Shown here one piece after another: positions 2,384 through 63,451 of a stretch of 64,000 bases of DNA (position 1 is its first letter; each line of letters opens with the position of its first letter). The translations under genes and the position numbers were made by a program. Origin of the DNA: Tubulanus polymorphus (lineage: Eukaryota; Animalia; Nemertea); contig NC_134029.1 of the NCBI RefSeq assembly GCF_964204645.1, positions 10,442,850-10,506,849 on the forward strand, written 5' to 3'. The notes under the pieces are model-generated. The model worked only from the letters and a program-made list of their open reading frames with translations, made no database searches and had not been told where the DNA came from.

Positions 2384-3584
2384 GCGACAATTCATTATTT
2401 TGGTTTTGTCGCACGCAACAATTCATTATTTTGTTTTTGCCGTCCGTGACAATTCATTATTTTGGTTTTATCGCCCGCGACGATTCAATATTTTGGTTTT
2501 AACGCCCGCGACAATTCATTATTTTGGTTTTATCGCCCGTGACAATTCATTATTTTTGTTTTGTCACCCGTGACAATTCAATATTTTGGTTTTGTCACCC
2601 GCGACAATTCATAATTTTGGTTTTGTCGCCCGCGACAATTAAATATTTTGGTTTTATCGTCCGCGACAATTCATTAATTTGGTTTTGTCACCCGCGACAA
2701 ATCAGTATTTTGGTTTTGTCGCCCACGACAATTCAACTTTTTGGTTTTATCGCCCGCGACAATTCATTGTTTTGGTTTTATCGCCCGCGACAATCCATTA
2801 ATTTGGTTTTGTCACCCGCGACAAATCAATATTTTGGTTTTGTCCCCACGACAATTCAATATTTTGGTTTTATCGCCAGCGACAATTGATTATTTTGGTT
2901 TTATCGCCCGGAACAATTGAGTATTTTGGTTTTATCGCCCGCGACAATTCATTAATTTGGTTTTGTCACCCGCGACAAATCAATATTTTGGTTTTGTCGC
3001 CCACGACAATTCATTATTTTGGTTTTATCGCCTGCGACAATACATTGTTTTGGTTTTGTCGCACGCAACAATTCATAATTTTGGTTTTATCGCCCTCGAC
3101 AATTTTTTTTTGTCCCGGTTTTATCGCCTGCGACAATTCATTATTTTGGTTTTATCGCCAGCGACAATTCATTATTTTGGTTTTGTCGCCCGCGACAATC
3201 CTTCTTTTTAGTTTTGTCGCCCGCGACAATTCATTATTTTGGTTTTATATTTTGTTTTTGTCGCCCGCAACAATTTTTTTTTTGGTTTTGGCGCCCGCGA
3301 CAATTTTTTTTTTGGTTTTGTCGCCCGCGACAATTCAATATTTTGGTTTTATCGCCCGCGATAATTCATCATTTTGGTTTTGTCGCCCGCGATAATTCAT
3401 TATTTTGGTTTTATCACCCGCGACAATTCAATATTTTTGTTTTATCGCCCGCGACAATTCATAGTTTGGTTTTATCGCCCCCGACAATTCATTAGTTTGG
3501 TTTTGTCGCCCGTGACAATTCAATATTTTCGTTTTATCACCCGCGACAATTCATTAGTTTGGTTTTGTCGCCCGCGACAATTCT
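2384..3584. repeat. 31-bp minisatellite array (continuation)
   Basis: Same unit as 60-1280. Confidence 0.95.
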
Positions 3585-3588
3585 TTTT

Positions 3589-4687
3589 CAGCCCACTTGG
3601 GACTTTAGTCCCAGCGGGCTATTGCGTTCACTTTTCGTCCGTCCGTCCGTCCATAGACGGAATCCAGTTATTTCGGGAAGTTTTGAAGACGCTTCAAGGT
3701 AATGTCTTGATATTTGGTGTATACATGTATCTACCCTAGACACATCGTCAGCCCAAAAACTGGCCCTGTCAGATTCAAGATGGTCGACTGGCAGCCATTG
3801 TTGTTTGCCATAATCAGCACTTTTTAAACATTTTCGAAGTTTTCGTGGGAAATTTTGAAGACGCTTTGATCAATTACCTTGATCTTTCGTTTATATTTGA
3901 ATCTACCAAAGGCCCATCAGCATAAGAAAATTGGGTCGATCTGACTCTAGATGGCCGTCCTATGATGTTTTTAGTGCCCAAAAATGTCAATTTTGGCCAG
4001 AATTCTAGGTCCTGTAGCTTCCTACTGGTTTGCCATTTCTCATTGCAATTGCTGATGGGTATTCTTTAGAGAGGGATGTTTTATACCTGGGACAGGTATT
4101 TTGATCAGACAATTATGACGCAATTGGCGGCCATCTTGGTGTCATCAGTACTCATTCGTAGGTGGGAAAAAGTTTTTCCACATTAAATTGATACCTAAGC
4201 ATATTGTGTTACTATATTCAATTGGAAAGTTGTAGCCCATAACGTGTTCTATGATTTTGGTGAGTTTCAAGGTCATTGGTTTTTGTATGTGGCCATCAGG
4301 GGGCGTTGAATAATACAATAACTTAGTATCGCTATATTATATTTGTACCAAGGCATATTTTGTTACCATGATCAATTGCAAAGTTGTAGTTCATGACATC
4401 ATCTATGATTGTGGTGAGTTTTTAAGGACATTAGTTATTCCATATAGTCACCAGGGGGCGTTGAATAGTAGAAAAGCTTAGTTTTTCCTTATTAGATTGG
4501 TACCTAGGCATAGTTTGTTATCACAATCAATTACAAAATCATAGCTGCTCACATGTTTTATGATTGTGGTGGGTTTCAAGGTCATTGGTTTTTGTATATG
4601 GTCACTAGAGGGCGTTATGTATTTAAATTGTTAGATAGTTGAGCATTTGAAACCACTTCCCAAGTGAGCATGGTGTCCCTGGACCCC
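3589..4687 (+). mobile_element. HINE-like element, copy 2 (within the duplicated block)
   Basis: Appears identical to 1285-2383. Confidence 0.8.
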
Positions 4688-11232: not shown

Positions 11233-12063
11233 GTGAGTAGTACATGTATTTTAAGTATGAACAATACATCCAAGGGACGTGTATTGTGTACTAACGTCCA
11301 GGTTTTAACTATTCTGGTGATAGTTTTTGTGATAATACACAAATGAATTTTATGAAACAAAGTCAAAGTATATACAAAATGAATGCTAAGGTTCAAAGGA
11401 CATTATAAGCAATTGCAATTATCATTTAAGTAACAGTGGCATTTGATGGTGATCATAAATATATAAATGCACATAACTGATGATTATAATAAAAGATGAT
11501 GATAATAATAGTAATGATAATAACAATGGTGAATTATAACAATAGTAGTAAATACAGCTGCAAAGCAGCGATAACAGGTTTCTGCCTTGCTGGGGTCAAC
11601 TCAGCATGGATATGTTGACCCACATGTTCACTTTGTACAAAGTACTAATGTACCAAGTTTAGTGGAAATAACATCAAGAATAATGTTGAAAATGTGTTTT
11701 TACCATTCCCTAGTGTCAGTTGTTTGAACTAATGCTGGTTAGCGTACTATACATATGTATATGTTTATACACTAGGTTTATGATTTCTATAACTAAATGA
11801 CTGAATTTAACACAAAAAAATGGATGCTAGAATGAGTTTTCAAAATTTAGGCCCTCTAGTTGTTAGAATAGGAACTAACTAGGTGAGGGATTCGTTGTAT
11901 TTAGTAACCAGGTACATGTGTATCAATTTTAATGGACTTTCACTGTAGCGAAGTCCATTTTGCTATCGCATATAACACTTTCTTCCTTTGGTACAAAATA
12001 ACTTTCAAATGAGGCTTAGTTTCTTTTCAGAACTTTCAAAACATTCATTGCAGTAATAAAATC

Positions 12064-43543: not shown

Positions 43544-44143
43544 TTTGTTGCTCAGCATATCAACAATATTCACTATCAACTACAATGTTGACAAAGTTTT
43601 TGAAGTCAAAAACGTCAACAGACCTAGTTTGCCACTAAATCGTTGGCGGTAAGCTATTATATTATATATTATAACAGATAACTATCTAATTATAATAATC
43701 AGATCGGCCTATTGTTTTAGGCTACCGCGTAAATATCCTACCGAGGTACTGTTAACCCTGACATACTCCAACAACTGACCTATATAGTAGTGGCGACCAT
43801 ATCTTTATCATAAACTAGACTGGTTTAGTTTTGTGCTCTCCTAAAAAAGGGAAGAGCTTAACCAGCTGCGGATTGAATTATGCCATCAAATTAATTTGCA
43901 ATGAATTTTTTTTCAACGCAACTTTGATAGTCGAAAACAATTATGGTGATAATTTTAAGAACATGGTCCCCGTAGTGCGGCAAAAATATAGATTTGAAAG
44001 TGCCCTCTGCAACAATTCGCGCTAGTCAACTTAGTTCCAATTTTGGCCGCACGGGGCGCTAAATTTGACGTCATCTTTGACAATGCGTCAAAATCATCTA
44101 CATGATAAAGCAATAAGAAGCACTCTAAAAACAGTTGTAGAAA

Positions 44144-45184
44144 ATGTCAAACAGCAGCGATGACAGCGAAACTTTGGATTTTGAATACGGACATTCAGGA
44201 GAAATTAAACCGTATTTGTTTGAGCCGATTATCAGTGACGTTACGCAACAAACTGATGATTTTGACGCGAGTGGCAGCCAAGTGGGTCATAATGAAGCAT
44301 CTGCTATTTCAAATGAATCCGAGCCTTCTGAAGACGATATCGACAGCGAGGAAGAGTACCATCAACGTCAAGATAATAAAGACTGGTAAATCAAAATATA
44401 TATTGAAACCGGCATGTAAAGCGAGGCCGTCTTGTGATACGGGCATTGCCAGTACAGTAGTACAATACAGTTCAGTAGGCCTACGTATGTGTATACGTTG
44501 CGACCCTCGCCGCACGTGCACTGCTGTCAGGTGTAGCCAGGCTCTTATCATTCACAACCATGTCGAAATTAAAGACATGTTATTGAGAGTAAGACTTGAG
44601 TAGCGGGTACTGCAAAGATATAGTAAGGTACTGTCTCAATCACATATTTTAGATTTTCTCTACCCATCGAGCCAATATCTTTTCAGGTGTTCCTGTAGAA
44701 ACAGTTTGACCAATAATTACAACTGTTCACCTATGCAGACCCCTAGAGAATGTGTGTGCTGCAAGGAATTTGGGAACCTCGTCGATATCATCAATGAAAA
44801 CCAATCAACTTGCATCACTGAAATTCAAGGCTTTAGAGTAAACTGCCTCGATCCAGAAGTCCTCAGAGTGTCCTTTTTGAACTAGCAGCACAAGAAGGCC
44901 CTTACGATGACGACGAACCGGTTTTTAAGTAAATAAAATGATGAACTTTTCTTATATATATTTATTTACATTTTACAGTTGAATGATTAACTAAATAGAT
45001 TCTAATTTATAGACTATACAGATACATAGCCTACACAAGATTTTGTAGATGGGCATGGGGACGCCTGGGCAAGAGAAATAGAAGAATCCTGCCATCCTGC
45101 GTAGTGTCAATAATTAGACTAAAGTGGCCGGCACCAGACAATATATATACCGGTTTCCAGTGTCCTACAATTCCAGATAACTGA
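44144..45184 (+). pseudogene. KolX / P2X7-ballast-like Cys-rich protein, 3 exons (44144-44385, 44687-~44928, 45013-45184)
   Basis: PYLFEP, WCSC..C.PM....ECVCC.E, CIT...GF..NCL, YRYIAY.RF.RW.WG.LG..NRRILPSC.V..IR..P....YTGF; one frameshift near 44880. Confidence 0.8.
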
Positions 45185-45286
45185 AACCTTGTTTTAATTC
45201 ATTTTATGTGTACATTCTTCATTTTATATCTGTAATTAAACTTCAATAATACTAATTTTAGATTCAGTTACTCGCTACTTTTTAGT

Positions 45287-46690
45287 TTACAGTCTTTTCG
45301 CAGATTTCTGTCGCTTTGCTATTTTATCCCCAGAAGCAGTTCTTTTAGTCGGAAGGTTGAACCTGCTTACCTGTGCCAAAACCACATCTTCTTTCTGGAT
45401 TTCGGATCTGTCATAAGCATCAGCAACAAAGCCCTTTTCTCTTCCTTTACTGGTCTCTAGCCGGCGATCCATTGCATCGTCCATCTTTGGTATAACTTTG
45501 CGAATATTCCATACTTCTTGAAGACAATCAGACAAATAATCTGCAAATATAACAATCATTTACTTTTAGGTTTTTATTCAGTTTCATTATGTATGCAGCT
45601 GCATTCACTTCATTTGAAAAGATGTTTTGAATAGATTTTTTAAAATTGGAACACCATGGCCAACAGATGTATGTTGTCGGAACTTTCACCTCTTTTGCCA
45701 CAGGCATACCCTTCTTCCACTTAGGGTAAAACAGCTGATATTGAAGTGTTCCATCCCTGGTACAAGCTTGGTCCCTTCCACGATTTTCATTGCAATGCAA
45801 CGCCGACAGTTGCAATCTATAAACAGAAAACATGTGTCAAAAAAGAGTACAGTAATACTGATTATCCACCGCCCTTGAACACTGACACTCAAATCTTGGT
45901 ACATGTATGTAATTGAAGGTGGAAGTGAGTGTTAAACAACCAAAAGTTAAGAGTACAGAATCCCATTATTTATTTTAAGACAAAGCTAAATGAACTACTC
46001 TGAATTACCTGGCATTCATTGAATCGTAAAAATAATGTAATGATTTTGGAGCGAAGTAAATCACTACTCTGTGGAAGGACTCCAATGATGATGTCTGCGC
46101 TCTTGGTGAGATTTTTCCGACATCTGCTTGTAGGTATTTGTTCAGCACAATCCCTTTCAAAACTTAGTGCACAGCAGATCCTAAAAGTTAAAGTTATTAT
46201 TTGTTAGCTAGAGGGAGACTTATGCGCTCTAAATTCAAACGAAATTTAAGGCCATTACCTTTTTTGATACAGTGTCTTGCTTCAAGAGCCCCATGGATAC
46301 AATTCTTAAAAATGTTTCCCTTCATAGCCTTCATGCACATCAGAAACGTGATTGACGATCGATTTCCACTTGTCAATTACAACATCTGCCTGTCCATCAC
46401 TACTTGCCGCACACCAGTACATGTGATTGCTGACTGACCGTGACCATTCTACCAGGATTTGAAATTTTTTCTTCTTTGCTTGCAATTCAATCTTCTTAAA
46501 CACAGCTGAAAATTTCCCATGTGATCTTTTTATTGAAATCAATATGAGTTCACAACTGGAGTCACAAAATTAAATATGATTTTTACCTTTAGCAAGATGC
46601 ATACACATTTCTTCTCATCACAAAAGCCTGGTGGGTTTTTTAAGATTGTCTGTCCTTTTAATCTCTTCATTTGGGTTTTGACCTGTAAGA
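45287..46690 (-). pseudogene. Kolobok-type transposase, 3' exons
   Basis: W.RSV.NHMYWCAASS..KW.S..NH..DVH, SP.AQTSSLESFH.V..FAPK..YF..M.AR and LSALH.NEN..R.Q; convergent with the KolX-like gene. Confidence 0.75.
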
Positions 46691-47664: not shown

Positions 47665-48077
47665 TATAGCATCGAAAATCCAACAGACGATACCAATAAT
47701 AACCAGGACGTATTTCGCTCTTGATATATGCTCGATTTCGTTCCTTTATTTGTTCCAAACAGTACAGTTGTTCCAACCAATTGTAACACTAACAGTAATG
47801 GTACACACAGTAGCTCCACATACAAAACACTGCAGCCGCTGTTTACATTATTCAAGCTCCGAATATCGAGATTTCTAGAAAAATACAAAATGACCTTAAA
47901 AATCCGAAAGGTTTAACATCTTTAAATCTCAATATAATCTAAAATAAACTTACAAACATGATACGATCTCCTGGCTCATATAACTTCAGAAAAAACAACA
48001 TGTTCTGCCCTGCAGCTATACTTCCGGAGCAGGGAGCACCATAAAAGGGGGCGCCACCATACATTTTGGCATCAACA
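47665..48077 (-). repeat. BEL 3' LTR
   Basis: Direct repeat of 63038-63451, adjacent to the PPT. Confidence 0.95.
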
Positions 48078-48332
48078 TACCCTCCCCCTTATGGGCACCC
48101 AGTCCCTTAACACTCAAAATCCTAAATTGATTCTACCATAATAACTAACACACATTTACCAAAGCGCCACCTTTCTTAAGTAAAGGAAACTTATCATTGC
48201 CCCTGAAGTGCTTATAAATCATTTGATAAAAATGAACAATACAACAAAAAACTAAAATTTAACATACTAGAACAACTAAATGCAATTACAGTGGAAAACA
48301 ATCAACCCGGTTATACATAAATGCGTATGCAA

Positions 48333-49413
48333 TTATTCATCCAATTCAAGTAATACTAATTTGTCCACAGGCCAGATCAACTCATTATCCTTAGTTTTTA
48401 ATAATACGCTTCTTACTAATCCGTCACTACCAAGAAACTCTTGAATTACTTTGCCTAACGGCCAGTTACACCTAGCAGCAGTATCATCTTTGATTAACAC
48501 AATATCGCCAGTGACTATATTTCTCCTGGGATTATGCCATTTTTGACGTTCTTGCATGAGGGGCAGATATTCCTTATTCCACCGACGCCAAAAAATGTTA
48601 GCTAAGTATTGTACCTGTCGCCATCTGCGACGCACATATATATCTGTATCAATGAAGATACCAGGTGGCAAGGTTTCACCAGGGCACAGTAATAAGAGGT
48701 GATTAGGTGTTAAAGCATGTATATCATCTTTGTTATCAGAAACATGGGTTAATGGACGGCTATTGACAACACTTTCAACCTCGCACATAAGCTTCTGCAA
48801 ACTTTCATCAGTCAACGTCTGCTGACACAGCAGAGCACCCAGTATTTTCCTTATGGATGCATCTTCCGGATGCATCTTACCCAGACGCCACCTAAATGGC
48901 TACCAGCAGGCGGGTTAAACTTCCAATTTATTTCCCGCTGAAGCAAGAAATTGGACACTTCCTGTTGATTCCAATTTGAAATACAAATCTTGAGTTCTCT
49001 CTCAGCCCCCACAAAATTAGAGCCGTTGTCACATCGGATCGACTCCGGTGAACCTCTACGGGCAATAAATCTCATCAAACCGTTTATAAAGGAAGGTGTA
49101 TCCATACTATGCAAAACTTCAATATGTATTGCACGACAAGCCAGACAAGTAAAGATACAACCGTACCGTTTTAACTGACTGCGACCGATTTTGACCATAA
49201 AAGGTCCGAACAGATCTACACCGACATTAGTGAATGGAGGTTTATCGGGTGTTACCCTGTCAGCGGGTAAATTAGCCATCTTTTGACCATGCACTGCACC
49301 TTGTCGTTTAATACAGTCTACACAACTACACAAGGCAGATCTCACTAGTGAGTTACCACGCGTTATCCAGAATTTCCCTCTAATAGCCGCCAAAACATGA
49401 TTCCTACCAGAAT
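48333..49413 (-). pseudogene. BEL integrase core and C-terminal domain
   Basis: VGVDLFGP, CIFTC..RAIHIE, DNGSNFVGA, NSRPLT..LTPNHLL, FWRRW..EY, WPLG. Confidence 0.92.
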
Positions 49414-49948
49414 CACAGGGACTTGTCACGATTGATAATGGATGAGACCAATGATGGGGGTACCAGTATCCCTGCAACTGTATAATAAAATAACAAGGGT
49501 GGCAAAAAATTTTCAATCTGACAATGACTTCTCCACTTCAATCGACTGTACTTCCAAAAATTCTCATCCGATTCGCATGAAATAAGCTTTAATACAACCT
49601 AGAAGACTTTCTGTTTCCAACGAGCCTTTAAACACCACTCTACGACAATTATCTCACAACGAAATCATCGTTTTTTGATGAGAGATAGCTCAAAATGGAG
49701 GTGTACCGATTCTGTGGTGGACAGCTAAATGGCAGTTTTTTTCACTTCAAACGATGATTTCTATGTGAGATCTTAGAGATAACCCCCACAAACCATACAT
49801 TTTTTAAAACTACGCGGTCATACCTGGACGCTAATCTCATTTATTTGTTTAATCCACGCGATGGGTGAGCTCACAAGCTCAAAATCGAAAATGAGGACGA
49901 ACACGGCGTTCAACTTGTCATCAACTGGGCGGCCATTAATCACGTGAT
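49414..49948 (+). repeat. Left long TIR of the P-type element
   Basis: Inverted copy at ~57713-58249. Confidence 0.9.
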
Positions 49949-50301
49949 ATCGTAGTAACGGGCTGAATATTTCACGCGCATTGATTGGCTTAGAGATTTC
50001 GAAAAAACATTACAAAATTTATTAACAAAGTTCTGATAATTAATAAAATATCCGTATTATGAAAATATAGTGCAACATTCGTCTGAGGGGTGGTATTATT
50101 TGCAAATATTTCCTTTTTTCAAGTCTACAGACGTAGACTTGCCGCGGTCTATCAACATAGCACGAAGTGTTCTCATTGGTCAGAAGTTTCAATGACGTCA
50201 TTACGCACGAAATTCAAAATCTGAAAATCGAAAATTCGTCACGCTGTTGGGCGATTGAGATGACTGCCTGACTACTACATGTTTGTAGATTATAAATTAT
50301 A

Positions 50302-53300
50302 ATGACATCGGCTATAGTTTCATGGTCAGTATAATCTGAAATATAATGACTTAGCAGGCCTCTAACTTGGCCTAGGCCTAATAAAAAATTATCAGTCCAA
50401 ATTTGTGCAAATTAAAAACATAATACGGTACACAAGCAACGCCAGTCGCGGTGCGTGGCGGGTGTAGGGCCTACCTGAAATAAAAGCAGGGTGCAGAGCC
50501 TAAATGTCTATTTCAACTTGACTTGGGGAAAGGACTTTAGGTGGCCCAGCTCAGTCAGTTTTTTACGTGGTAGGCCTACATCAGGCAAACCTGGTCTTTA
50601 GACAACTTTACTTTTAAAGGAACAGGAATGGACTGGCAGTTGTAAACTAAAACATTGTTTTTAAATAGGCCCACATTTTACACTGTAGTAGTAAGGCCGG
50701 CCTAGCCCAAGGATTGCAAAAAGGACTTCTTCATCGAATGGGGTTGATTGAATAAAGAAAAGTGACTCCATGATTTGAATGTTTAACAACGTGTTTCCAT
50801 TCCATACCTAACCATGATTAGGCCTAGGCCTAGATGAAAATAGCTTCAGTTGGTAGGCGCGGCATGGAGGCATAGGCCTTTAACCACCTGCGGCTGCATC
50901 AGGTAGGCTATTTACCGCCTTACGTATGCAGACCTGCCACCTATGACATTATATGACATTATTAGGCCTTTAGGCCTAGGCCTAGATAATTTTGTCAAAA
51001 TAGGTAAGAAAAATAGGCCTAGACCTAAATGATCCAGGATCACCATTTTGGGAAGGCCTAATATTTGATTCAATATAAGTTCTTTTTTATATTCTAGGTT
51101 ATCACTAAATCTGATTGAGGATGAAACTTCACCAGGAGTACCAGTGCAAACTGTATACTTGCATTATCAAGAAAGCTGCCTGTCATCTGGTACATCGCCG
51201 GTCAATGATATTACATTCGGGAAATACATTCACGGATTATTCGGAGTTACCAAAAAACGAATTCGAGACTCAAAAGTTTCCAGAGTATTCATCTATCCAG
51301 GAATTTCACTAAGAGAAGAAAATGACTCGGATGAACGCAGCTTAAACGAATTAATTGACAATGCTACATTGGATCATACATGTATTGCATACAAAAGAAA
51401 GGACTTGTATGTAATTGAGATCGATTCAGGATATGCAGTGAACAACAATTCTGTGATGAAAAAAGTTATCTTAAATGGCACGGATTATACCTGGCAATTG
51501 ATGATCGGTACAACCCCAATAGAACTACAGTTATATGGAATATCAAATAGATATACACGTACAGTTCACTCGATCTCATCAATCATTCTCATTGTGAAAA
51601 AAATCAGACTTTGCCTGGGAAAAGTTAAACCGTTTATATCCATTGTGAAAGATATCTTCGTGGAGACAATATCCGATGGAAACAACTTTTCTACAGTGTG
51701 TCTACGTATGAAGACATGTGAACGTATCCTGACATTTATCAAAGACAGTAAATCATCGTCATATAGGAAATGCAATGATATAACACTATGTGAAAAGCCT
51801 AAACGAAATTCAATCGAAATTCGAGATAGTGGTGACATGTCAAAAATTATGGATGCAATATTCCCACACGCAACAAGTAAGTTTTATTTCATAAAAAATG
51901 GAGTCTAATTTTTTTTAGTATCTACTAAATTTGAACTTCTTCTTTAGGTGAAATGAAAACTCTGATGGAGCAACAAAGAAAGATGCTGGCTACATCAGGT
52001 GTCAACAGTCATCGCTGGGATAGAAAATTAATTGCTCAATGCCTGTCGCTTTGGGCAAGGAGCCCTGATTCGTATCGTAACCTTAAAGAATCAGGTTATT
52101 TGATTCTACCATCCGAACGTTTACTTAGAATGTATAAAAATTCAGTTCCACAAGAGTCGGGCTTGAATACCGAAACCCTGGAATGGATGATAAACGTAGC
52201 AACGAGGCGGAAAATTTCAAAAGAGGGATTCGTTGGAGGATTGTTGCTCGATGAAATGTCAATCGAAAAAAAACATCGTGACAGTTGGAGATGGAGATCG
52301 ACTACGTCTTGTTGGCTTTGTAGAATCTGGGCCAGAGGCCAATGACCTGGAAATCATAAAGAGTAACACCAGAGAGCAATCATTGGCTTCGCACGTATTG
52401 CAATTCGAATTTGTTGGATTTACAGGATTCCGCTTTCCTATCTGCCACTTTCCAACAAAGCAAGCATCAGCAACTGATATATATGTAATGTTTTGGGAGA
52501 TCGTATCAATCTAGACGGCGCAATTACAAATCGTCAATTTGTGAAATTACACTTTTCCGGTAACCCTTCTGAAGCAGTTTTCTCAGTACAAAATGATGAC
52601 AAAATGTTCTTTATAATGGACATCAAACATACATTTAAAAAGATCAGGAATAGTTTATTCGCCAGTTCACCAAGTAGCAGGAAACGCCATATCTTTATTA
52701 ATGGACAGCATTTCGAATGGAAAATGTTCAATAGTTTCAATAAGAGACGACCGCATAAAGAAACTAATTGCAATATTGAAATGGTTTAATGATTGGGAAA
52801 AATCTGTTATAAATGACAGCAATCTTCAACCTACCAATAAATTTCTGATGACTGCAGAGTGCAGAGAAGATTTAAAGTCATCCTTGCTGGGATTCATATC
52901 GTTGTGTGAACATAGGTAAATACACAAACATTAAATGACAGCTTTTCAAAAGATATTTCAATACCTGATATGGTCGTACATCTTGGGGCTAATATGATAG
53001 AATTTAGTTTAGAACCTTAAATATAGCTTACTAATCTAAATTATATAATGACAAAGATAAATGTCCCTGTTCTACATTCTTAATTGTTTCTTTCAAACAA
53101 TGAGTCTAGGGTTATTTATCGAAAATAATAACAATCCAAAAATGTTCAAGGACTACTGTAAATCTATGTTGCCACCAGTTACAACCCAATTTGTTTGAAA
53201 GAATAACCTATTTTATGAGAATGTCATCCATAAAATTCATTTGTAATGCATAATTTCAGGTTCAACGACAAGTATGACACAAGTAATAAATCCCAGCCGC

Positions 53301-53552
53301 CTTAATTCCGATGAGATTGAGAACCATTTCTGCCAACAACGTAGCTTAAATGGGAATAAATCCAATCCCACGTATGCCGATTATAAGAAGTCAGTGAACA
53401 CCATAATACTAACGCAGAAAACAGTTTCACGTAAATCGAACGCGGCAAATAATAAACAATCGGCAGATCCGTTTTGTTTCCGAACGGACAGACCATTGAA
53501 CCCTCGACCATCTAAAAGAATTGCGCTGATGGATATTTCCAATCAAAGGTAA
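50302..53552 (+). pseudogene. P-element/THAP9-family transposase with N-terminal RFX-like winged helix; exons 50302-50324, 51098-51876, 51948-52915, 53260-53552
   Basis: RW...I..CL.L..RSP..Y..L...LILPS.R.L, LLLDEMSI, DGA..NR, D.KH.FKKIRN, LNSD.IENHFCQQRS..G...NPT. The first two introns are phase-consistent. Frameshifts at ~52270, ~52505 and ~52735. Confidence 0.85.
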
Positions 53553-53875
53553 ATTAAAACCTCTATTAGTATCTATTACAAGATCTCCACATTTAAATAA
53601 TACAGCGATAATTATAAAAACATGAAAAGGCTAAAAAATGATACCTTGGTTCTCTGCAGTGGCCGAGTCACTTTCGTCAACTCCAATAAAATTTGTAATC
53701 AGTTCATTTCTATAGCAGCCGGGTCTGTTATGGTAAAATTGATCACGATTTTTAAAAGTAATGTACAGGGTAGGTAGGCGGCCGGCAGCGTAAAATTTTA
53801 AGCTCTGTAGACTGAGAAACAAGGTATCAATTTTTTTAGCCTAATCATTGCATAATGTTACCTACCGCTGATTTA

Positions 53876-56800
53876 TCAGCAATAACTACAAATAAATTCT
53901 TCATCCTTGTTTCCATTTAGAAATTCCCATTCATCGTCATCGAATAGTTCGGCACAAAATCGGTAGAACCACCGATCACACCTATCACATGCAATCCATT
54001 CCCACTGTTTTCAGACCACGGCTGTTGACATTCAGGGCATATGTACTGATTTAGTGGCCGAGCACGTAAGGTTTTGTACTACATGTACTAGTAACATTTT
54101 TAGCGGATGATGTTGATGCTTCAAATGCATCCCTTATATTTGGCATACACTCTAGATTTACAATCTCAATAGATAATCTGGATATAAGAGCCTTCATTGT
54201 GTCAAGCTGCATATAGGGCACATTATATGCTACACACAGCTTCTGCAATTGTTCTTTCTTTAATTTGGGGAAATCTGACGACTGGATAGCTGCAACAAGC
54301 CTTTTGTGAGAAATTTCTTTCCCCAACGAAATGTCATCGAGTATTGATTGAAAATCAAAAACATATTTCGTAGATTTCTTTTCACGCTGTGCTCCTTGGC
54401 TACCAACAAGAACTTTGGTCCGATGCACCAAATCTTTTTTCTTCTTAATTTCGTTTAAATAGTCCGAGTGTAATTGTTTCACAGTGACACGAGAATAGAG
54501 TGTTACGATTTCTTTGTAAAGTCTGCAAAGAATAACCTTTTCACTCTCCGAATAATCAGAGTAAAGCTTAAGAAACAAATCCTCCATGTCACTATCCAAC
54601 ATTAATGTTCTAATGAGTATATGGTGGTACCGTTCTCCATGCGCATTCAAATTTTCTATTGACTGGAACTCAACAACAGATTTGCATAAATAGACAAAAA
54701 ATTCGTTCACTGAATCTGTGATATGTACAAGACTTTGTCGTACATTTTGACGACGAGAAGTCTCATTCAATGAGTTAAAGTCACAGCTTTCAATCTGGCT
54801 CTCCGTTCTGTAAGCCGTGAAATCAATTTAACAATGTTCATTTCAAAAACCAGACTGAAATAAAATAACTAGGACTTATAATATCTATAAATAGAATAAG
54901 AATGTTTTTGTCTTGATAATTTACAAAAATTACTTACTATCGATTTTTGACGATGTTGGGCAAACTGTATCTGCAAGTCGAGAAACGACAATTTTTCGTA
55001 CTTCGACATACAATTCATACGTAACATACGATTCTCCTTCTGAACAACAATGAAGTGATGAATATAGTTTACCGCGATGAAGTTTAAAATCCAGTCCAGT
55101 TGAAAACTGATGCAGTTTTTGATACGCATTCGTTAAATTCATTTGTGAATGTTCACTTTCACTGACAGTTTCTGTAAAAATACTTTCGACAGACATCAAA
55201 GTCCAAGCAAGAAAATTGTCCAGCTTTTCTCTGTCCAAGTTATCGATAACTGAATTTACAGATCGCTGAAAATCCGTAATAATCTTATTGAAACGAACAG
55301 CTGCCAAAACTTTTTCAAATCCGGGGGTAAGTGATGTACAGTTTCTGATTCAATTTCAATTATTCTATTTATTTCGTTTAGATTCTGAATCAGCAGACTA
55401 TCATCGTCATCGCGTGCTTCTGCAACTGGTTCTGCTGTCGCTTCATCATCTTTCGTGCAAACTTTATTCCGACAACAAGATGAGAAATAATGTTCGAACG
55501 GCACTCGTAAAATTTATCAATCGAACACGGCTGTTTGATGATGCATTGTTCAGAAAAGTTTATCAATCGCAATCCATCCGAATTTGTAACTCTTCCAATC
55601 GCAACACCAAGTTGTCCAGGACGATTAATGGGAGTGCAATCAACCGTGACACTCGAACAAGTCATGCCCTGTGCCTTATGGACAGTAAATGCAAAAGCCA
55701 GCGCAATGGGGATTTGCAACCTCTCGGCGATTATACGGTCTTGTGATGGATCGAAGACTGAAAAACAATGTTTGCATTTTGTACTGAATTGTGATTCGTG
55801 TATTGATTTTTGTGCTATTGATAATTACAGTCATAGTGCAATCTTGATTAATATGAGCAAAGATAACTATATTTTAATTTTAATTTTAAATCTTTAATTT
55901 TTCAACAGTTTTAAAATCATTTTCAGTTTATTTTAAGTTATGTTTCTTGTTATTAAAGCCAGCTCTATGAGCTGTATATATCGTCATAGATACAAAAGAA
56001 TGTGTTACACGTTGTTATCTTTATTGACTCACTATTGACCCCAATGAACGATTGGTCCCTCATCAGTAAAGTCCTTGACATAGCCAAGGGATCCATTGAC
56101 CAGATTATCTGACAAGTTGACCAACAACATTACTGGGCAATTTCGCTTCAAATGCAGTAGCTTGGGCGCTTGAAAATTTGTTTTCCTATGTCCATGGTCT
56201 GTAGCTTTGTACGTCATAAGATCACCTGCCATCTGAAATATGTCAACATCGTAACAGTTAGTAGAATGTAGAAAACTAAGAAAAGGATACGATTGCCTTT
56301 CAGACATTATACTCACATTGAATACGCTTTCTGAACTTTCAACTTGTGCTTCAGTGTTGGTGGCAGTTTCACTTGAGTTTTGAGGCTTTCCTTGCACGAA
56401 AGTCCCTTTAAAAATCGATTGCCTCAGTTGAGCAACAGCCTTTGCTGACTTCATTTACAACCTATTATAGTGAAATCATTTTCAAGTAATAATAGGTATG
56501 GTATGTATCAAAATAGACAGTTTTATAAACTTCTTGGGCTACCTGACCGAAGAAATTGTCCTTTTGTCTCATTACTGTGACAAGTTTAATCGTGTGAACA
56601 ATTGTCTTATCCCATATAACTGACTCGAACGCCATTTTTCCATCGTCGTTGTACAACGCATTTTTTACAGGGGGTAACTGGTAAAAGTCGCCTGTTTAAA
56701 AAAGATATGCTTTTTATATGGTTTTTCAAGTTCATAGTATTGATTCACGCATACACATGATGGTTATCTTACCAGCAACTATTACTTGTATGCCACCGAA

Positions 56801-57425
56801 ATACAAATCCGATTTCCTGGTACGCCGTATTACTTCTTCTATCAATTCGAAAATCTTGGTAGAAATCATTGAAATTTCATCAATGATCAATACATCACAA
56901 CTGACCATTCGTTCATGGGTTTTTTTAAAATCATCTTGCGTCCATAGCATTTCGACGACCTTTTGCGCTTTGTGCCGTCCATTGTTAATCCCTGTCCATC
57001 TATTAGAAAAAATGCAATATGTAAATTTTACGTTACTCACAGGGCTCGTGCCTCATGACCAAAAAATTTCATGAGGGTCAACAAAAATTGTGTATTGGCC
57101 AGACTATCCTCAATAGCATACAAGTCCAAAAATGATATAATCGAATAGGCCCCATTTCATTCAAGAGTTATGATTTTGGAGAGTACTTAAATTTTTAAGA
57201 GCCGTACCTGTGTATAGTCATGGGACGAGGTTATACTGCTGAATACACCTGGCAAGCTTTACCCGTAGATCCAGTGAGGTGAACATTTTTCCCTCTTTCC
57301 TGCAAATTCTTTACAATACTTTTTATCGTGTATGATTTACCGGTCCCTGCTTGACCACAGATGAAAATGTTATGGCCTGCAACAGCGAGATCTATTGCAG
57401 CACGTTGCTCCACGCTGGGCTCCAT
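53876..57425 (-). pseudogene. Spliced Pif1-family (SF1B) helicase with C-terminal SAP-like and PHD domains, transposon-borne
   Basis: GQAGTGKS, TIHR|WTGI, IIDEISM, FGGIQVIVA|GDFYQLPPV, VMRQ.D, L.LK..CPVMLLVNL...LVNG, QIP..LAFA.TVHKAQGMT, GQLGVAIGR. PHD: CPEC..WIACDRCDRWFYRFC..FICSYC. Contains stops and frameshifts. Confidence 0.88.
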
Positions 57426-57712
57426 CTTGAATTTCACAACAAATCTTAATCTCATCATCTCACCAGGTGGTGGTGATGAATATCCTAATTATCATGCACG
57501 CTCTAACCACGTGCTCATTGTATGTACACATTGTTTATATTTTTCTGACACACCTCCCGATAAACCAATCAACGCATAGCCACCTGCTTCCTGTTTATAT
57601 TTTACTCGCACGTCACCGGGTGAGCCAATCAGCGCGTTTGTTGTGTTTACGCTGTCACCTTTCACCCGGTAGCCAATAGACGAACGTGAAATCTTTAGCC
57701 CGAACCTATGCA

Positions 57713-58249
57713 TGTCATGTGATTAATGGCCGTCAGTGCGATAGTGTGAGGTGACTTTTTCGTATATTTGTTCGATTTTGAGCTTGTGACCTCACCCATC
57801 GCATGGATTATACACATAAATGAGATAAGCGTACAGGTATGACGGCGTAGTTTTAAAAAATGCATGGTTTGTTGGGGTTATCTCTAAGATTTCACATAGA
57901 AATCATCGTTTGAAGTGAAAAATACGACCATTTTGCTGTCCACCATAGAATCGGTACACCTCCATTTTGAGCTATCTCTCGTCAAAAAAAGGTGATTGCG
58001 TTGTGAGATAATTGTCGGAGAGTGGTGGTTAAAGGCTCGTTGGAAGCAGAAAGTCTTCTAGGTTGTATTAAAGCTTATTTCATGTGAATCGGTTGAGAAT
58101 TTTTGGAATTACAGTCGATTGAAGTGGAGAAGTCATTGTCAGATTGACAATTTATTGCCACCCTTGTTTTTTATATTATACAGGGATAGTGGACCTGGTC
58201 ATTGATATTGGTTTTATTCATTCACTATCAATTGTGACAAGTCCCTGTG
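57713..58249 (-). repeat. Right long TIR of the P-type element
   Basis: Inverted copy of 49414-49948. Confidence 0.9.
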
Positions 58250-61200
58250 ACCAGAATGCCCAACCACATACCTATGGTAGTACGTAACTATCAACCTAGT
58301 AACATAAGAGCCCTTTGGCAAGATTATAGGGTGCTTACTACTATAAGGCAAATTGGAATTTGTGAGACGTCCTTTACTCTAAGAACCCATCTTCAAATAC
58401 CGGGTCCAACCTTTTTATGGGGCTAGTCTGTTTCAAAGTCTTCCTCCTGCAAGCGCCAGAAAGAATTCTCATTTCGTAACTGTAATATTTCGATTGCACA
58501 GCCGGCAGTAATACTTTCTCTGCATGCCTGATTTCAGGTACGGTCATAAACCCTGTATACCTTTGTACACCTTTATCATGTTTAGCGGTCACTGCCGCTT
58601 TCAGATTTCTGACGAAACGTAGGACCCATGCGGTAACAGCCTTAAGCTTATACCAAGAAGAGAATTTGTTAGCCATATTTAATAACATGTAACCGGTATC
58701 GTCAGCAATGACATGATTTTCACTTTTACTCTCGGAATCTACCTTCTTGACACTCGTCTGAAAGGAAGAAACCTCTTTTACCTCAGGGTCCTCATGTATT
58801 TCAAGGTTATCCAACCCTTTAGGCCAATCACATTCTGGTAAACGCAAAAATGATGGACCAGAGACCCAGTCAGCTTGAAGGAACTCCTGAGCAGAGACGC
58901 CTCGGGACACAGCGTCAGCCGGGTTCATTTTAGAACGAATGTAGTGCCATTGATCTGGATTTGAACCTGCGTGAATCATGGCCAAACGATCGGCTACTTA
59001 AGTTTTAAACCTCTTGTCAGCATTATTGACATACTTTATCACGGTTGTACTATCCGACCAGAACTGTGAATCGTGAATTTCAAATTCAAACTCATTACGC
59101 AATGTTTGATCATTCTTTACTGCTAAGGTTGCAGCAGCTAACTCCAATCTGGGGATGCTGACCGCTTTAAGCGGAGAAACTCTAGATTTAGAGTTTACTA
59201 ACGTTGTATGAACCTTATCATTATCGTCGCGCAGCCGCAAATAAGTAACAAATCCGTAGCCGTCCTGAGACGCATTGGCGAAATGATGTGACTGAGCATT
59301 AATTACCTTGAACCCGGGGGGTTTGATACACCTGGGAATAGATACCCTGACAATATCAGGTAAACCTGACTTCCAATTTTCAAATCGAGTCACATACTCG
59401 AGGGGTAACTTGTCATCCCAACCGCAGCCCATTTTACACAACTCCTGCAAAATTATTTTACCCGGTAACAAAGCAGGTGAAGCGAACCCTAACGGATCGT
59501 AAATGCCAGTAATAGTGGATAACATTCCACGCCGTGTTGCTGGACGGTCCTTTAAATTAACACTGATTTTGAATACATCCTTGTCCATATCCCACCATAT
59601 ACCTAGTGTTCTTTCGCCAGGGAGTCCAGGACCAATTTCCCTTAATTTGTCAGCTCAATCCTCCAAGGGGATGCTTCCCAATACTTCCTTAGAATTTGAG
59701 GTAAACTTGGTCAGTTTAAAGCCACCCAAGGCTAAGAGTGCTTAAACGGCTAACCATTTCTGCTGTCATGGGAACAGATTCCAAAGATTAAAGGCAATCG
59801 TCCACGTAAAAATTATTATATACAGTATTTACAACCGAACTACTGAACAGGTGAATATTATCCTCGGCGGTCCGGTGTAGAGCAAAATTACACACACTAG
59901 GTGACGTTACCGCACCAAAGATATGTACCAGCATACGATAATCTACCGGATCCGAATCAAGATCTCCGTCAGGCCACCAGAGAAAACGGAGTGCATGAGC
60001 ATCTCTGTCAGGCACCCTGACTTGATGAAACATGCATTTTATGTCAGCAGTAAATGCAATAAGCTCCTGACGGAAGCGACACAAAACACCCACTAATGTA
60101 TTAGTAAGGTCAGGCCCTTGATATAAAGAATCGTTCAGGGAGACTCCCTCATATTTAGAGGAGCCATCGAACACAACCCTAAATTTATCAGGTTTTTTCT
60201 CATTGAATACTGGGTGGTGGGGTATGTACCACGTAAATCCGATACCCTCATTAACCTGTTGCTCAGTTAATCTTTCAGCAAAGGCCGATGAGACTAAGTC
60301 CCTAACATATTCGTCATACTTTAATTTTAAATCTTCATTCCGCAACAGCCTTTGCTTTAGATATAGCAACCTACGTTCTGCCGAAATACGGTTATTGGGC
60401 ATACTAGGTGGGCATGACCTCCATGGAAGGCCGATCTCATAATGACCACTAGACAATACTACAGAATTTTCGAATAAGCCTATAGCTTTCTGGTCATTTA
60501 CAGACCTAGTCTTATCACAACAAACTTCGTCGTCATTAAACTCGCGATTACAATAATCTTGGAACAAATCGTTCAACCGTTGGTCAGTTTAAAAGCTCCT
60601 ACACGTTTACAGTTTTCCTTTGTATTAATACTCATACAACGTTTAAGCGGGCCATTTATTGTCCAACTGAAAACTGTCTTAACCGCAATCGGACCTTTAC
60701 CTCTACCTTTACGCACTTCAAGCGGTTCAAGTGCTTCACAATTGTCGTTGCCTATTAGAATCTCAACACCAGAATTTATAAGTTCAACCTTTACATCGGA
60801 CAAATGTGGCCACTTATCAATGTCTACCTGTTTTGCTATGTCGTCGACTGATATGGGCAGATTCGAAACCGATATTACATCACGGAGGGGCACGCTAGAT
60901 TGCCCGTTAAGGTCCGACACAGTTAAGTCTACCTTAGTACTAATGATTTTCTCATCTTTACCTAACGTACACAGCTTAAATTCAGTTTTAACTCCAGAAA
61001 TTCCTAAACCTTTAATAAGACTTTCAGTACAGAATGATGCTGTAGAACCATTATCAAGGAATGCATAAGTTTCAATAACTTTGTCACCGATAACTCTAAC
61101 GGGTACGATAGGCAGACCAATAACGGAATCTAAGGTACTACTAGTGACAAACCCGCTCTTAGCAGACTTATCAGCCTCTTCGTTGTTAGGAGGCCTCTCC

Positions 61201-62941
61201 GATTCAAAGTGTAACAATGCATTATGAGACTTACTACATTTTAAACACGATAACTTGCTACGACACTGTTAAGCTCTATGATTAGGCTTAAGGCACAACC
61301 AACAAAGACCTTTATTTAAAACATAATCCCTCCGTTCTTCAACAGATTTTGCTTTGAAAATATCACACTTATCTGTCCAGTGCTCACTGTTACTACAATA
61401 TTGACATTTGACAAAATTCGAAACAGGACCTGAACTTTCATGCTTTACGGCATGAACAGATTTTCTAAGGGTATTTCCCCTTTCATAACTTTGTGGAGGT
61501 TTTTCCACTTTACGATCGCTAAAAACTTTCCCAAAAACGGGGTGATTTAACACACGCGCCTCCTTGGTAATAAATGAAGCCATATCTTGGAAGCTAATTT
61601 CTCGACCCGCTTCCTCAGAGATCCGATCTGCAGTTACACGCCAGCGTTTGCGTGCATCATACGGTAGTCTTTCGCTCAGCTTCCGCATTGTCTCCGGATT
61701 TTCAACCTTGGACAGATATCCAATATCGCGAAGGGTATTAACGCAACTCATCGCAACGACCGACAATTTCTGCATTCCTGCGCTATCTTCCGCCTTTATG
61801 GGTGGTCCGCTGACCAACTTATCCACGAAGCTGCAAGTGATCTTGTAGCTCTGACCGTACTGTTTCTTCAGTGCTGACAACGTGTTATTTAATCCGCTCA
61901 ACGACTCCAATGAACAAAAACTTTTTACAAGTTCATTCGCATTTCCAGTAGTGCACTGTAGCAAGAGATAAAACCTAGTCCCATCATTAGACGTTTTTCG
62001 ATCTATCAGGGTATCATATGCTCTCATAAAACTGTAGAATTCACACGGATCGCCATCAAATTTGGGCATTTCAGTTTGTGGTAAAGTCAAGGCCATTGTG
62101 GTTTCTATTTGCCTGGACAATAGGTTTTCCAGGTTATATGATGGATTTACACTGACATGACCATATTCAGGTGTGAAGGACACGGCCTCCGGCCTAAGCG
62201 TAGTACCTGCCGCTACTGTCGATTCGAATGGCGGCTTGTCAATCGTAACTGCGTTTCCATTAGATACTGGAGCGGCAGGTGTGTAACCCCTTTCGGCAGC
62301 TGTAGAGGAATATACCTGTTCGTCTTTTCGTGCTGACGTAAACGACGGATCATCTCTTACTGACGACGGAAACGACAGATCATGTCTAACTGTAGACGGA
62401 TACGCACGATCATCTCTTACTGATGACGGAAACGACGGATCATGTCTAACTGTAGACGGATACGCACGATCATCTCTTACTGACAACGGAAACGACGGAT
62501 CATGTCTAACTGTAGACGGATACGCACGATCATCTCTTACTGACGACGGAAACGACGGATCATGTCTAACTGTAGACGGATACGCACGATCATCTCTTAC
62601 TGACGACGGAAACGACGGATCATGTCTAACTGTAGACGGATACGCACGATCATCTCTTACTGAGGACGGAAACGACGGATCATGTCTAACTGTAGACGGA
62701 TACGCACGATCATCTCTTACGACGGAAACGACGGATCATGCAATTTCAACGAGTTATCGACTACAGACGATTTCCAGTTCCGTTTGGTAAGCGATTGAAC
62801 TTCGACCTCCAGTTCCTTAATTCTATTTTCTAAACGACCTAGATACTCCGACTGGTTTACACTAGGCCTACTACAATCACTATAGTCTTCATCCACAGTC
62901 AAGAAGGAACTAACCCTCTTCATAAATTCTGCATACTCCAT
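58250..62941 (-). pseudogene. BEL gag-protease-RT-RNase H (decayed)
   Basis: gag FDGDP and Cys knuckles; protease FLDNGS; RT YIPHH, GPDL, ADI..MF.QV, YVDD; YDPLG, SIPRLEL, WSDS, NPAD. Confidence 0.92.
62341..62740 (-). repeat. 60-bp (2x30) coding tandem repeat in BEL gag, ~6.5 copies
   Basis: Unit encodes SVRDDRAYPSTVRHDPSFPS. Confidence 0.95.
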
Positions 62942-63037
62942 GATCAGCTGATGATCATACTAGCATAGCAGCTAGTCACACGTAATAACTTCAGAACTAA
63001 AACAGCAGTACTTACACGAGTCGCATGTTTAAATTAA

Positions 63038-63451
63038 TATAGCATCGAAAATCCAACAGACAATACCAATAATAACCAGGACGTATTTCGCTCTTGATAT
63101 ATGCTCGATTTCGTTCCTTTATTTGTTCCAAACAGTACAGTTGTTCCAACCAATTGTGACACTAACAGTAATGGTACACACAGTAGTTCCACATACAAAA
63201 CACTGCAGCCGCTGTTTACATAATTCAAGCTCCGAATATCGAGATTTCTAGAAAAATACAAAATGACCTTAAAAATCCGAAAGGTTTAACATCTTCAAAT
63301 CTCAATATAAACTAAAATAAACTTACAAACATGATACGATCTCCTGGCTCATATAACTTCCGAAAAAACAACGTGTTCTGCCCTGCAGCTATACTTCCGG
63401 AGCAGGGAGCACCATAAAAGGGGGGCGCCACCATACATTTTGGCATCAACA
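63038..63451 (-). repeat. BEL 5' LTR
   Basis: Direct repeat of 47665-48077, flanked by CCCTT. Confidence 0.95.

Follow-up and report, generated by a model that had tools for sequence, protein, structure and literature searches.

The DNA analysed here, called the window, is a stretch of 64,000 nucleotides from the nemertean Tubulanus polymorphus (RefSeq assembly GCF_964204645.1, contig NC_134029.1, positions 10,442,850 to 10,506,849, forward strand). It contains a DNA transposon of 8,836 bp (49414-58249), which belongs to the P superfamily by its catalytic core, its terminal inverted repeats (TIRs) and its target site duplication (TSD), and which encloses two convergent genes, one encoding a transposase and the other a Pif1 helicase with a PHD finger. 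The 8-bp TSD ACCAGAAT was exact at both flanks, as judged from this single copy, and both ends of the element read CACAGGGAC going inward, with matching termini CACAGGGACTTGTCAC. The TIRs showed 85% identity over 591 alignment columns, with a core of 402 nt at 93% identity. When the two flanks of the element were translated separately, they gave consecutive halves of the minus-strand integrase of a BEL/Pao retrotransposon, cut in the zinc-binding region; domains Integrase_H2C2 and rve were found on the left flank and Peptidase_A17 further right. The long terminal repeats (LTRs) of this retrotransposon (47665-48077 and 63038-63451) were 97.8% identical and the P element sits inside it, indicating that the P element insertion is the younger of the two. 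A first-pass annotation, made from the bases alone, had described exact boundaries, an 8-bp TSD within the BEL integrase, CACAG termini and a convergent pair of P-type transposase and Pif1-like helicase genes; all of this was borne out, the gene pair by Pfam and family profiles. The long TIRs it had put at about 530 bp are present and are slightly longer. It had mentioned neither the decay of both genes nor the apparent transfer of a transposase C-terminal domain (CTD) onto the helicase. The window element is a decayed copy in which both genes are broken. The coordinates of all features are collected in Table 1.

Table 1. Features of the P-type element, its insertion site and its host retrotransposon in the window
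Feature	Positions	Strand	Basis
Host BEL/Pao LTR retrotransposon, integrase split by the element	47665..63451	-	LTRs and Pfam matches
Left TSD ACCAGAAT	49406..49413		exact 8-mer
Left TIR, about 577 bp, terminus CACAGGG	49414..49990	+	TIR alignment
Transposase exon: RFX winged helix and linker	51098..51876	+	PF02257 E 2.6e-8; family profile E 7e-29; AG/GT borders
Transposase core exon: HTH region, D (LDEM), D (LDGA), DxxH (DIKH)	51948..52916	+	family profile, motifs
Last transposase exon: catalytic E (DEIENHF), short basic tail, no CTD after it	53260..53552	+	Pfam, family profile
Nested high-copy miniature inverted-repeat transposable element (MITE), about 214 bp, TIRs of about 30 bp (GGCTAAAAAA...)	53629..53842		depth ~2,200 vs ~7 in run X5
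PHD finger closing the helicase protein, with a frameshift and with Tyr in place of the His ligand of relatives	53876..54051	-	motifs; PF00628 in relatives
Middle domain, predicted P CTD, then weak SAP-like helix pair	54054..54855	-	relatives' models vs 6p5a_B
Helical domain linking the helicase core to the middle domain	54939..55340	-	family profile E 7e-18
Pif1-family SF1B core, five exons	55489..57425	-	Pfam PIF1, Pif1_2B, motifs; stop and frameshifts
Right TIR	57671..58249	-	TIR alignment
Right TSD ACCAGAAT	58250..58257		exact 8-mer

The transposase pieces of the window carry the catalytic signature of the P superfamily, i.e. the DDE triad together with DxxH, and relatives of the protein also carry the D, DxxH and E motifs. 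This signature is common to P, hAT, MuDR, Kolobok and Dada transposases, with the C/DxxH motif located after the second D and before the E (PMC9587614). Matches of the window transposase to the Pfam TNP-like RNase H N and C models were weak (E 0.033 and 0.0044), but matches to a profile of 43 family transposases were strong (E down to 2e-36). An unbroken core of 544 aa (P0164), encoded by locus L127, retrieved 42 proteins, and its best PDB sequence match was the Drosophila P transposase (6p5a_A, E 0.005). When 20 transposase relatives were scanned with Pfam, PF21787 (TNP-like RNase H N) was present in all of them, PF21788 and PF12017 in three each, and PF21789 was also among the matches. Named hosts of the transposase family are Lingula, Mercenaria, Ptychodera, Oculina and Dendronephthya. 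Features shared with the P superfamily are a DDE RNase H domain with DxxH, P-domain homology, and TIRs with an 8-bp TSD. The window gene is damaged by frameshifts and a stop, and about 90 codons have gone from the GTP-binding insertion within the core exon.

Two features of canonical P and THAP9 transposases were not found in this protein: a THAP zinc finger and a CTD on the chain that also bears the RNase H core. The P/THAP9-type label given at first holds for the core and fails for the N-terminus, which is an RFX winged helix. No THAP-like motif was seen in 49950-51120, upstream of the RFX exon, and no short upstream exon was located; among the 20 relatives RFX was matched in four (two above cut-off) and THAP in none. 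In 36 of 43 family transposases with the E motif, the chain extends past the catalytic Glu by 11-115 residues (median 66), as against 220 residues in the Drosophila protein (E531 from the PDB sequence alignment; 751 aa, PMC10824691). The profile of the helicase middle domain described below matched none of 78 transposase-family proteins (best E 0.22). In the window, the stop codons of the two genes lie 324 bp apart, too close for a CTD exon to fit between them. Ahead of the RFX exon, on its upstream side, the stretch 50350-51040 is rich in TAGGCCTA-type palindromes, and at about 50750-50800 sequence reads showed high copy number and opposite-strand joints.

The helicase gene starts at an ATG (57425) about 245 bp inside the TIR edge. 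Its product shows the Walker A motif GQAGTGKS, the Walker B motif IIDEISM, GDFYQLPPV, a 2B domain, TVHKAQG and GQLGVAIGR; PF05970 and PF21530 matched both the window protein and its relatives, and these matches place it, with its SF1B motifs and 2B domain, in the Pif1 family. The window copy has suffered frameshifts and a stop, and its middle domain has lost about 55 codons at the beginning. Used alone, the C-terminal piece of the helicase matched 162 clusters at E<=0.001 in a HMMER search of 1.84 billion representatives. Out of 150 relatives listed, 57, mostly longer matches, were scanned with Pfam (P0049 proved to be a false match): PHD (PF00628) was found in at least 37 of the 57 and PIF1 or Pif1_2B in 23, and PF18953 matched the SAP-like helix pair of one relative (E 0.018). 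No Rep or Helitron family was among the best five Pfam families of each of the 57, and in six of seven full-length members Walker A lies at residue 22-26, leaving no space for a Rep or a host N-terminal domain. The early observations that no HUH Rep precedes the helicase and that its ATG lies just inside the TIR were both upheld. When the RFX exon and the helicase C-terminal piece were used in word-index searches, no match emerged among longer proteins, and the leads from the ESM Atlas (RFX clusters; viral and algal Pif1 clusters) were all below 0.9. In one helicase cluster (P0060/P0242) both members carry ITEISM at Walker B instead of IDEISM, possibly an inactive sublineage.

A comparison with host PIF1 and the Helitron helicase had been proposed in the first-pass annotation. 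In sequence the family is far closer to PIF1 of the host type: the family helicase core scored 210 bits against yeast PIF1 and 170 against human PIF1, versus 59 against Helraiser. Among solved structures eukaryotic host Pif1 was closest (yeast PIF1, E 4e-61). In a quick tree comprising family rows and a viral Pif1 outgroup, with no host PIF1 or Helitron sequences, 16 family helicases formed one side of a branch opposite 27 of 53 recovered viral Pif1 proteins (SH-aLRT 99.8). Viral contigs scanned with family patterns yielded no family member; a generic Pif1 pattern gave the viral helicases, which served only as the outgroup. Named hosts of the helicase family are molluscs and hemichordates (Pecten, Argopecten, Tegillarca, Ptychodera and Glandiceps), and in Pecten maximus four members, 95-100% identical, lie on four different long contigs. 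As a gauge of selection, the window helicase was compared with diverged copies in its host, and 13 of 16 listed coding differences were synonymous (expected share <=0.29, p 2e-5).

Linkage of the two genes was also observed in other loci. A scan of metagenome contigs with the middle-domain motif gave 79 loci, 22 of which encode the helicase family. Transposase sequence of the family was present in six of these 22, and at E<0.05 in none of the remaining 57, which are mostly prokaryotic-looking and a weak control. The pairs are convergent in L081, L107, L127 and L132; in L158 the transposase lies on the opposite strand, upstream of the helicase, and L135 is a same-strand fused chimera. In L127 (11.7 kb), inverted repeats at 4-154 and 11509-11657 enclose both genes. 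No RFX X-box consensus was found in the TIRs of the window element or of L127. The clusters P0003 (helicase) and P0175 (transposase) share four contigs of identical size (2,520,544; 1,455,022; 1,392,008; 398,428), four of six for each cluster, with parallel identities of 100/100, 99.7/99.6, 99.75/99.6 and 98.2/98.7%. Of the transposases, P0175 scores highest for the window (443 bits, next 440), and P0003 ties for the highest identity to the window helicase (43%) among the 15 top-scoring helicases. These clusters point to a young family whose two genes are intact and travel as a pair. A co-phylogeny of six linked pairs, consisting of short saturated pieces, gave no signal (Spearman -0.06, p 0.57).

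Three loci of the metagenome scan showed further details. In L158 the RFX exon (2947-3728) is on the opposite strand about 150 bp from a helicase ORF that starts at the 2B domain, an arrangement that may be head-to-head, nested in an intron, or rearranged. In L135 (3-887, minus strand) the N-terminal region of the transposase is joined in frame to the middle domain of the helicase, both on the same strand; an internal deletion in a co-oriented element would be expected to give this product. In L156 (636-4214) an intact-looking endonuclease-RT (LINE) ORF adjoins a truncated middle-domain fragment.

The pairing of a Pif1-PHD gene with a P transposase characterises a lineage and did not arise as a one-off capture. 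That a P lineage is dedicated to two genes had been suggested from the window alone, and this is now supported by a multi-copy family and by linkage in other genomes; against one-off capture or independent insertion the suggestion held in most tests (162 clusters, six of 22 loci linked, L127 within TIRs). A single capture of a host PIF1, for which the closeness of the core to eukaryotic host Pif1 would speak, is hard to reconcile with a widespread family whose members are multi-copy in Pecten maximus (at least 95% identical, four contigs) and whose linkage to the transposase recurs. The alternative of an ordinary P element with a nested Helitron fragment is opposed by the early Walker A, by the lack of a Rep among the best five families of each of the 57 relatives, and by the low Helraiser score. 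Both variants are largely refuted and we regard them as very improbable.

The middle domain of the helicase carries the motifs RGKIRYIGGWC ... RKQN...GLTNISD, which are kept across the 162 clusters and whose likeness to the tail of P transposases was suspected before any structure search. In the AlphaFold model of P0002 (mean pLDDT 82.5), residues 277-469 had as top match among 48,161 solved chains 6p5a_B, the Drosophila CTD (617-734), with Z 10.4 and rmsd 2.6 Å over 118 of 118 residues; no other chain reached Z>=8. A domain-only model of L101, from another subgroup (pLDDT 90.4), returned the same top match (Z 9.7, rmsd 2.9, next row 6.5). The middle domain is accordingly predicted, from these models, to fold like the CTD of the Drosophila P transposase. 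The match weighs more because the matched domain is the one that the partner transposase lacks. Our preferred reading, which we hold to be likely, is a P transposase split over two genes: an RFX-headed catalytic core encoded by the first, and a Pif1 helicase fused to the CTD and a PHD finger encoded by the second.

A number of observations weigh against this reading. As to the fold, sequence identity between the middle domain and the Drosophila CTD is 14%, Foldseek gave no match at E<=0.001 with either model, the middle-domain sequence profile matched no P transposase chain in the PDB (6P5A included) and no informative Pfam family, and for helical domains a Z lower than about 13 may stem from an arrangement that is common among them; the assignment as a CTD comes solely from predicted structure. 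The window copy is dead and has lost the first CTD helix, and many transposase relatives are single-ORF gene calls in which exons could be missed. As to linkage, no transposase was found there in six of ten family loci with at least 0.8 kb past the helicase 3' end; none of these six has much space upstream of a whole helicase gene. L158 is without the N-terminal half of the helicase and L135 is chimeric, both being rearranged; the TSD of L127 is unreadable at the contig edge; and the identical contig sizes of P0003 and P0175 denote the same contig, not adjacency. The 16 coding variants come from the best-supported 40 of 437 rows, and two or three diverged helicase-bearing copies in the host had no transposase alignable at >=80%.

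Low identity, the missing Foldseek and profile matches and a Z near 10 in a helical domain are what would be expected if the middle domain were an unrelated helical bundle resembling the CTD by chance, beside a shortened P transposase and an ordinary captured Pif1-PHD protein. Two models, however, gave the same top match, which led the next row by about 3 Z units and covered the whole chain, and the matched domain is exactly what the partner gene lacks. Chance likeness is consequently judged improbable.

Copy number in the host was estimated from depth in public reads under the same species label (runs X1, X2, X3 and X5). The interior of the element was near single copy (depth about 35 in X1), with the TIRs at far higher depth. 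An internally deleted, non-autonomous derivative of about 1.3 kb (49414-50148 plus 57709-58249) was seen as a joint of 50148 to 57709 in 109 reads of X5. Its depth was 158 in X2 versus 10-14 in the element interior, and it reached roughly ten times single-copy depth or more in X5, X2 and X3. The high TIR depth and the multi-copy derivative indicate that the ends have been mobilised many times. No empty-site joint was among the 15 joints listed of 171 in the reads. The diverged host copies have in common the 3' end of the helicase and the final ~25 transposase-frame bases (53527-53620 and 53858-54067), beyond which they differ. Their lack of an alignable transposase suggests that helicase-only derivatives exist; the copies are either such derivatives or members of a sister family. 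The nested MITE sits between the 3' ends of both genes and is missing from the diverged copies (joint 53620-53858, X1); its depth is several hundred times single copy, and its GG...CC termini resemble Kolobok ends.

Helicase-only copies in the host would also fit a helicase that is a co-inherited, free-standing accessory, as proposed for the RecQ of AcademH and KolobokH, with a CTD-like domain that came from the transposase and now might only bind DNA, while the core works alone. Such a helicase could aid repair or copy number. The varying layouts (convergent in the window and in L081, L107, L127 and L132, otherwise in L135 and L158) agree with this, and RecQ accessory helicases are known in Kolobok, one of them on the complementary strand (PMC9587614). 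On the other hand, no examined family transposase has kept the CTD, which contacts DNA in Drosophila (PMC7776569), and the middle-domain motifs are conserved over the 162 clusters. On this analysis we consider a free-standing accessory unlikely.

If, as we prefer, the transposase is split over the two genes, the Drosophila complex suggests how the halves might cooperate. There the CTD, borne by a linker that is flexible and disordered, is lodged between the GTP-binding domain and the RNase H domain and contacts both transposon and target DNA, with many DNA contacts in the strand-transfer complex; the superfamily is GTP dependent and makes a 17-nt staggered cleavage (PMC7776569). The flexible linker would be a natural split point. 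From the position and DNA contacts of the CTD in Drosophila we infer that the transpososome would require the helicase protein as one of its subunits. Within this complex the CTD would tether the Pif1 motor and the PHD finger, and would place an ATP-driven motor, of 5'-3' direction in Pif1 (PMC9964779), at the looped-out transposon end and the target junction. Three tasks may be inferred for it. The first choice, held tentatively, is that the helicase remodels the ends and strips the very stable strand-transfer complex for gap filling. Repair of the donor-site gap, which would raise copy number, is a possible but doubtful alternative, and access to targets on chromatin is considered slightly less probable still. 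In the choice of targets the PHD finger would act as a chromatin reader, and RFX would take over from THAP the binding of the long TIRs. Taken across hosts, we think it reasonably probable that this is an old P lineage spread through the animals (molluscs, brachiopods, hemichordates, corals) with a two-subunit transposase whose partner is a Pif1-CTD-PHD protein.

The element shares with Drosophila P and THAP9 (6P5A) the 8-bp TSD, TIRs starting with CA, a DDE RNase H core with DxxH, an HTH region and the GTP-binding insertion. It differs by TIRs of about 580 bp versus 31 bp, by RFX instead of THAP, and by a family transposase that ends before the CTD, a second gene holding Pif1, the CTD-like domain and PHD. 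Galileo, of the P superfamily, has a single THAP-bearing transposase gene and is not known to carry a helicase. Its P-type transposase also lies within long TIRs (PMC3573991). AcademH and KolobokH are cut-and-paste elements that likewise encode a helicase (PMC9587614, PMC10045372), in KolobokH a RecQ downstream of the transposase domain (PMC9587614). They belong to other superfamilies, however, their RecQ being an SF2 and the window Pif1 an SF1B helicase, and the 8-bp TSD differs from the 9-10 bp of AcademH (PMC10045372) and the TTAA of Kolobok (PMC9587614). Helitron and Helentron RepHel proteins also place a Pif1-family helicase in a mobile element, but the window element has no HUH Rep, has long TIRs and an 8-bp TSD, and is remote from Helraiser. 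An identity as Helitron, AcademH or KolobokH was rejected, given the lack of a Rep, a Pif1 instead of a RecQ, the P-type core and the 8-bp TSD.

Dedicated ATPase partners of transposases include MuB and TnsC. IstB of IS21 is likewise an element-encoded motor protein that works with its transposase (PMC11208146). All three are prokaryotic AAA+ ATPases, unlike an SF1B helicase fused to a piece of transposase. If the split reading is true, the lineage would provide, for eukaryotes, a cut-and-paste transpososome that has an ATP-driven helicase among its own subunits, a parallel to bacterial MuB, TnsC and IstB. The presence of helicases in several DDE transposon lineages calls for an explanation; where the helicase apparently carries a transposase piece, it is predicted to take part physically and directly in the transpososome, and young intact copies (98-100% identical members for each of the two genes) make its role testable. 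The system would bear on the disassembly of stable strand-transfer complexes and on the swap of a DNA-binding head from THAP to RFX, and many invertebrate 'PIF1-like' and 'uncharacterized PHD' annotations would be transposon genes.

A description of P elements bearing Pif1 or RFX was not found in the literature searched, mostly open-access listings and the beginnings of abstracts, nor in the available passages of PMC8788227, PMC10799480, PMC10045372 and PMC9587614; the text of PMC8788227 contained none of the terms 'TIRs', 'P element', 'PHD' or 'DDE'. The passages of PMC9587614 and PMC10045372 described no case in which a transposase domain had moved to a helicase gene of its own standing. That such families have a Repbase entry is plausible, though on balance not expected, and Repbase-derived supplements could list them; an earlier description of the CTD transfer is less plausible.

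Elsewhere in the window, at 44100-46600, a P2RX7_C (KolX-like) gene on the plus strand (E 5e-9) faces transposase-like ORFs on the minus strand that had no Pfam match; this is probably a Kol0-type Kolobok element, KolX having been described in PMC9587614. A tandem repeat of 30 bp (60 bp at higher order) lies in frame in the BEL gag ORF at 62275-62754. At 15-1288 and from 2257 onward, 31-bp tandem satellite arrays occur within a tandem duplication of about 2.3 kb.

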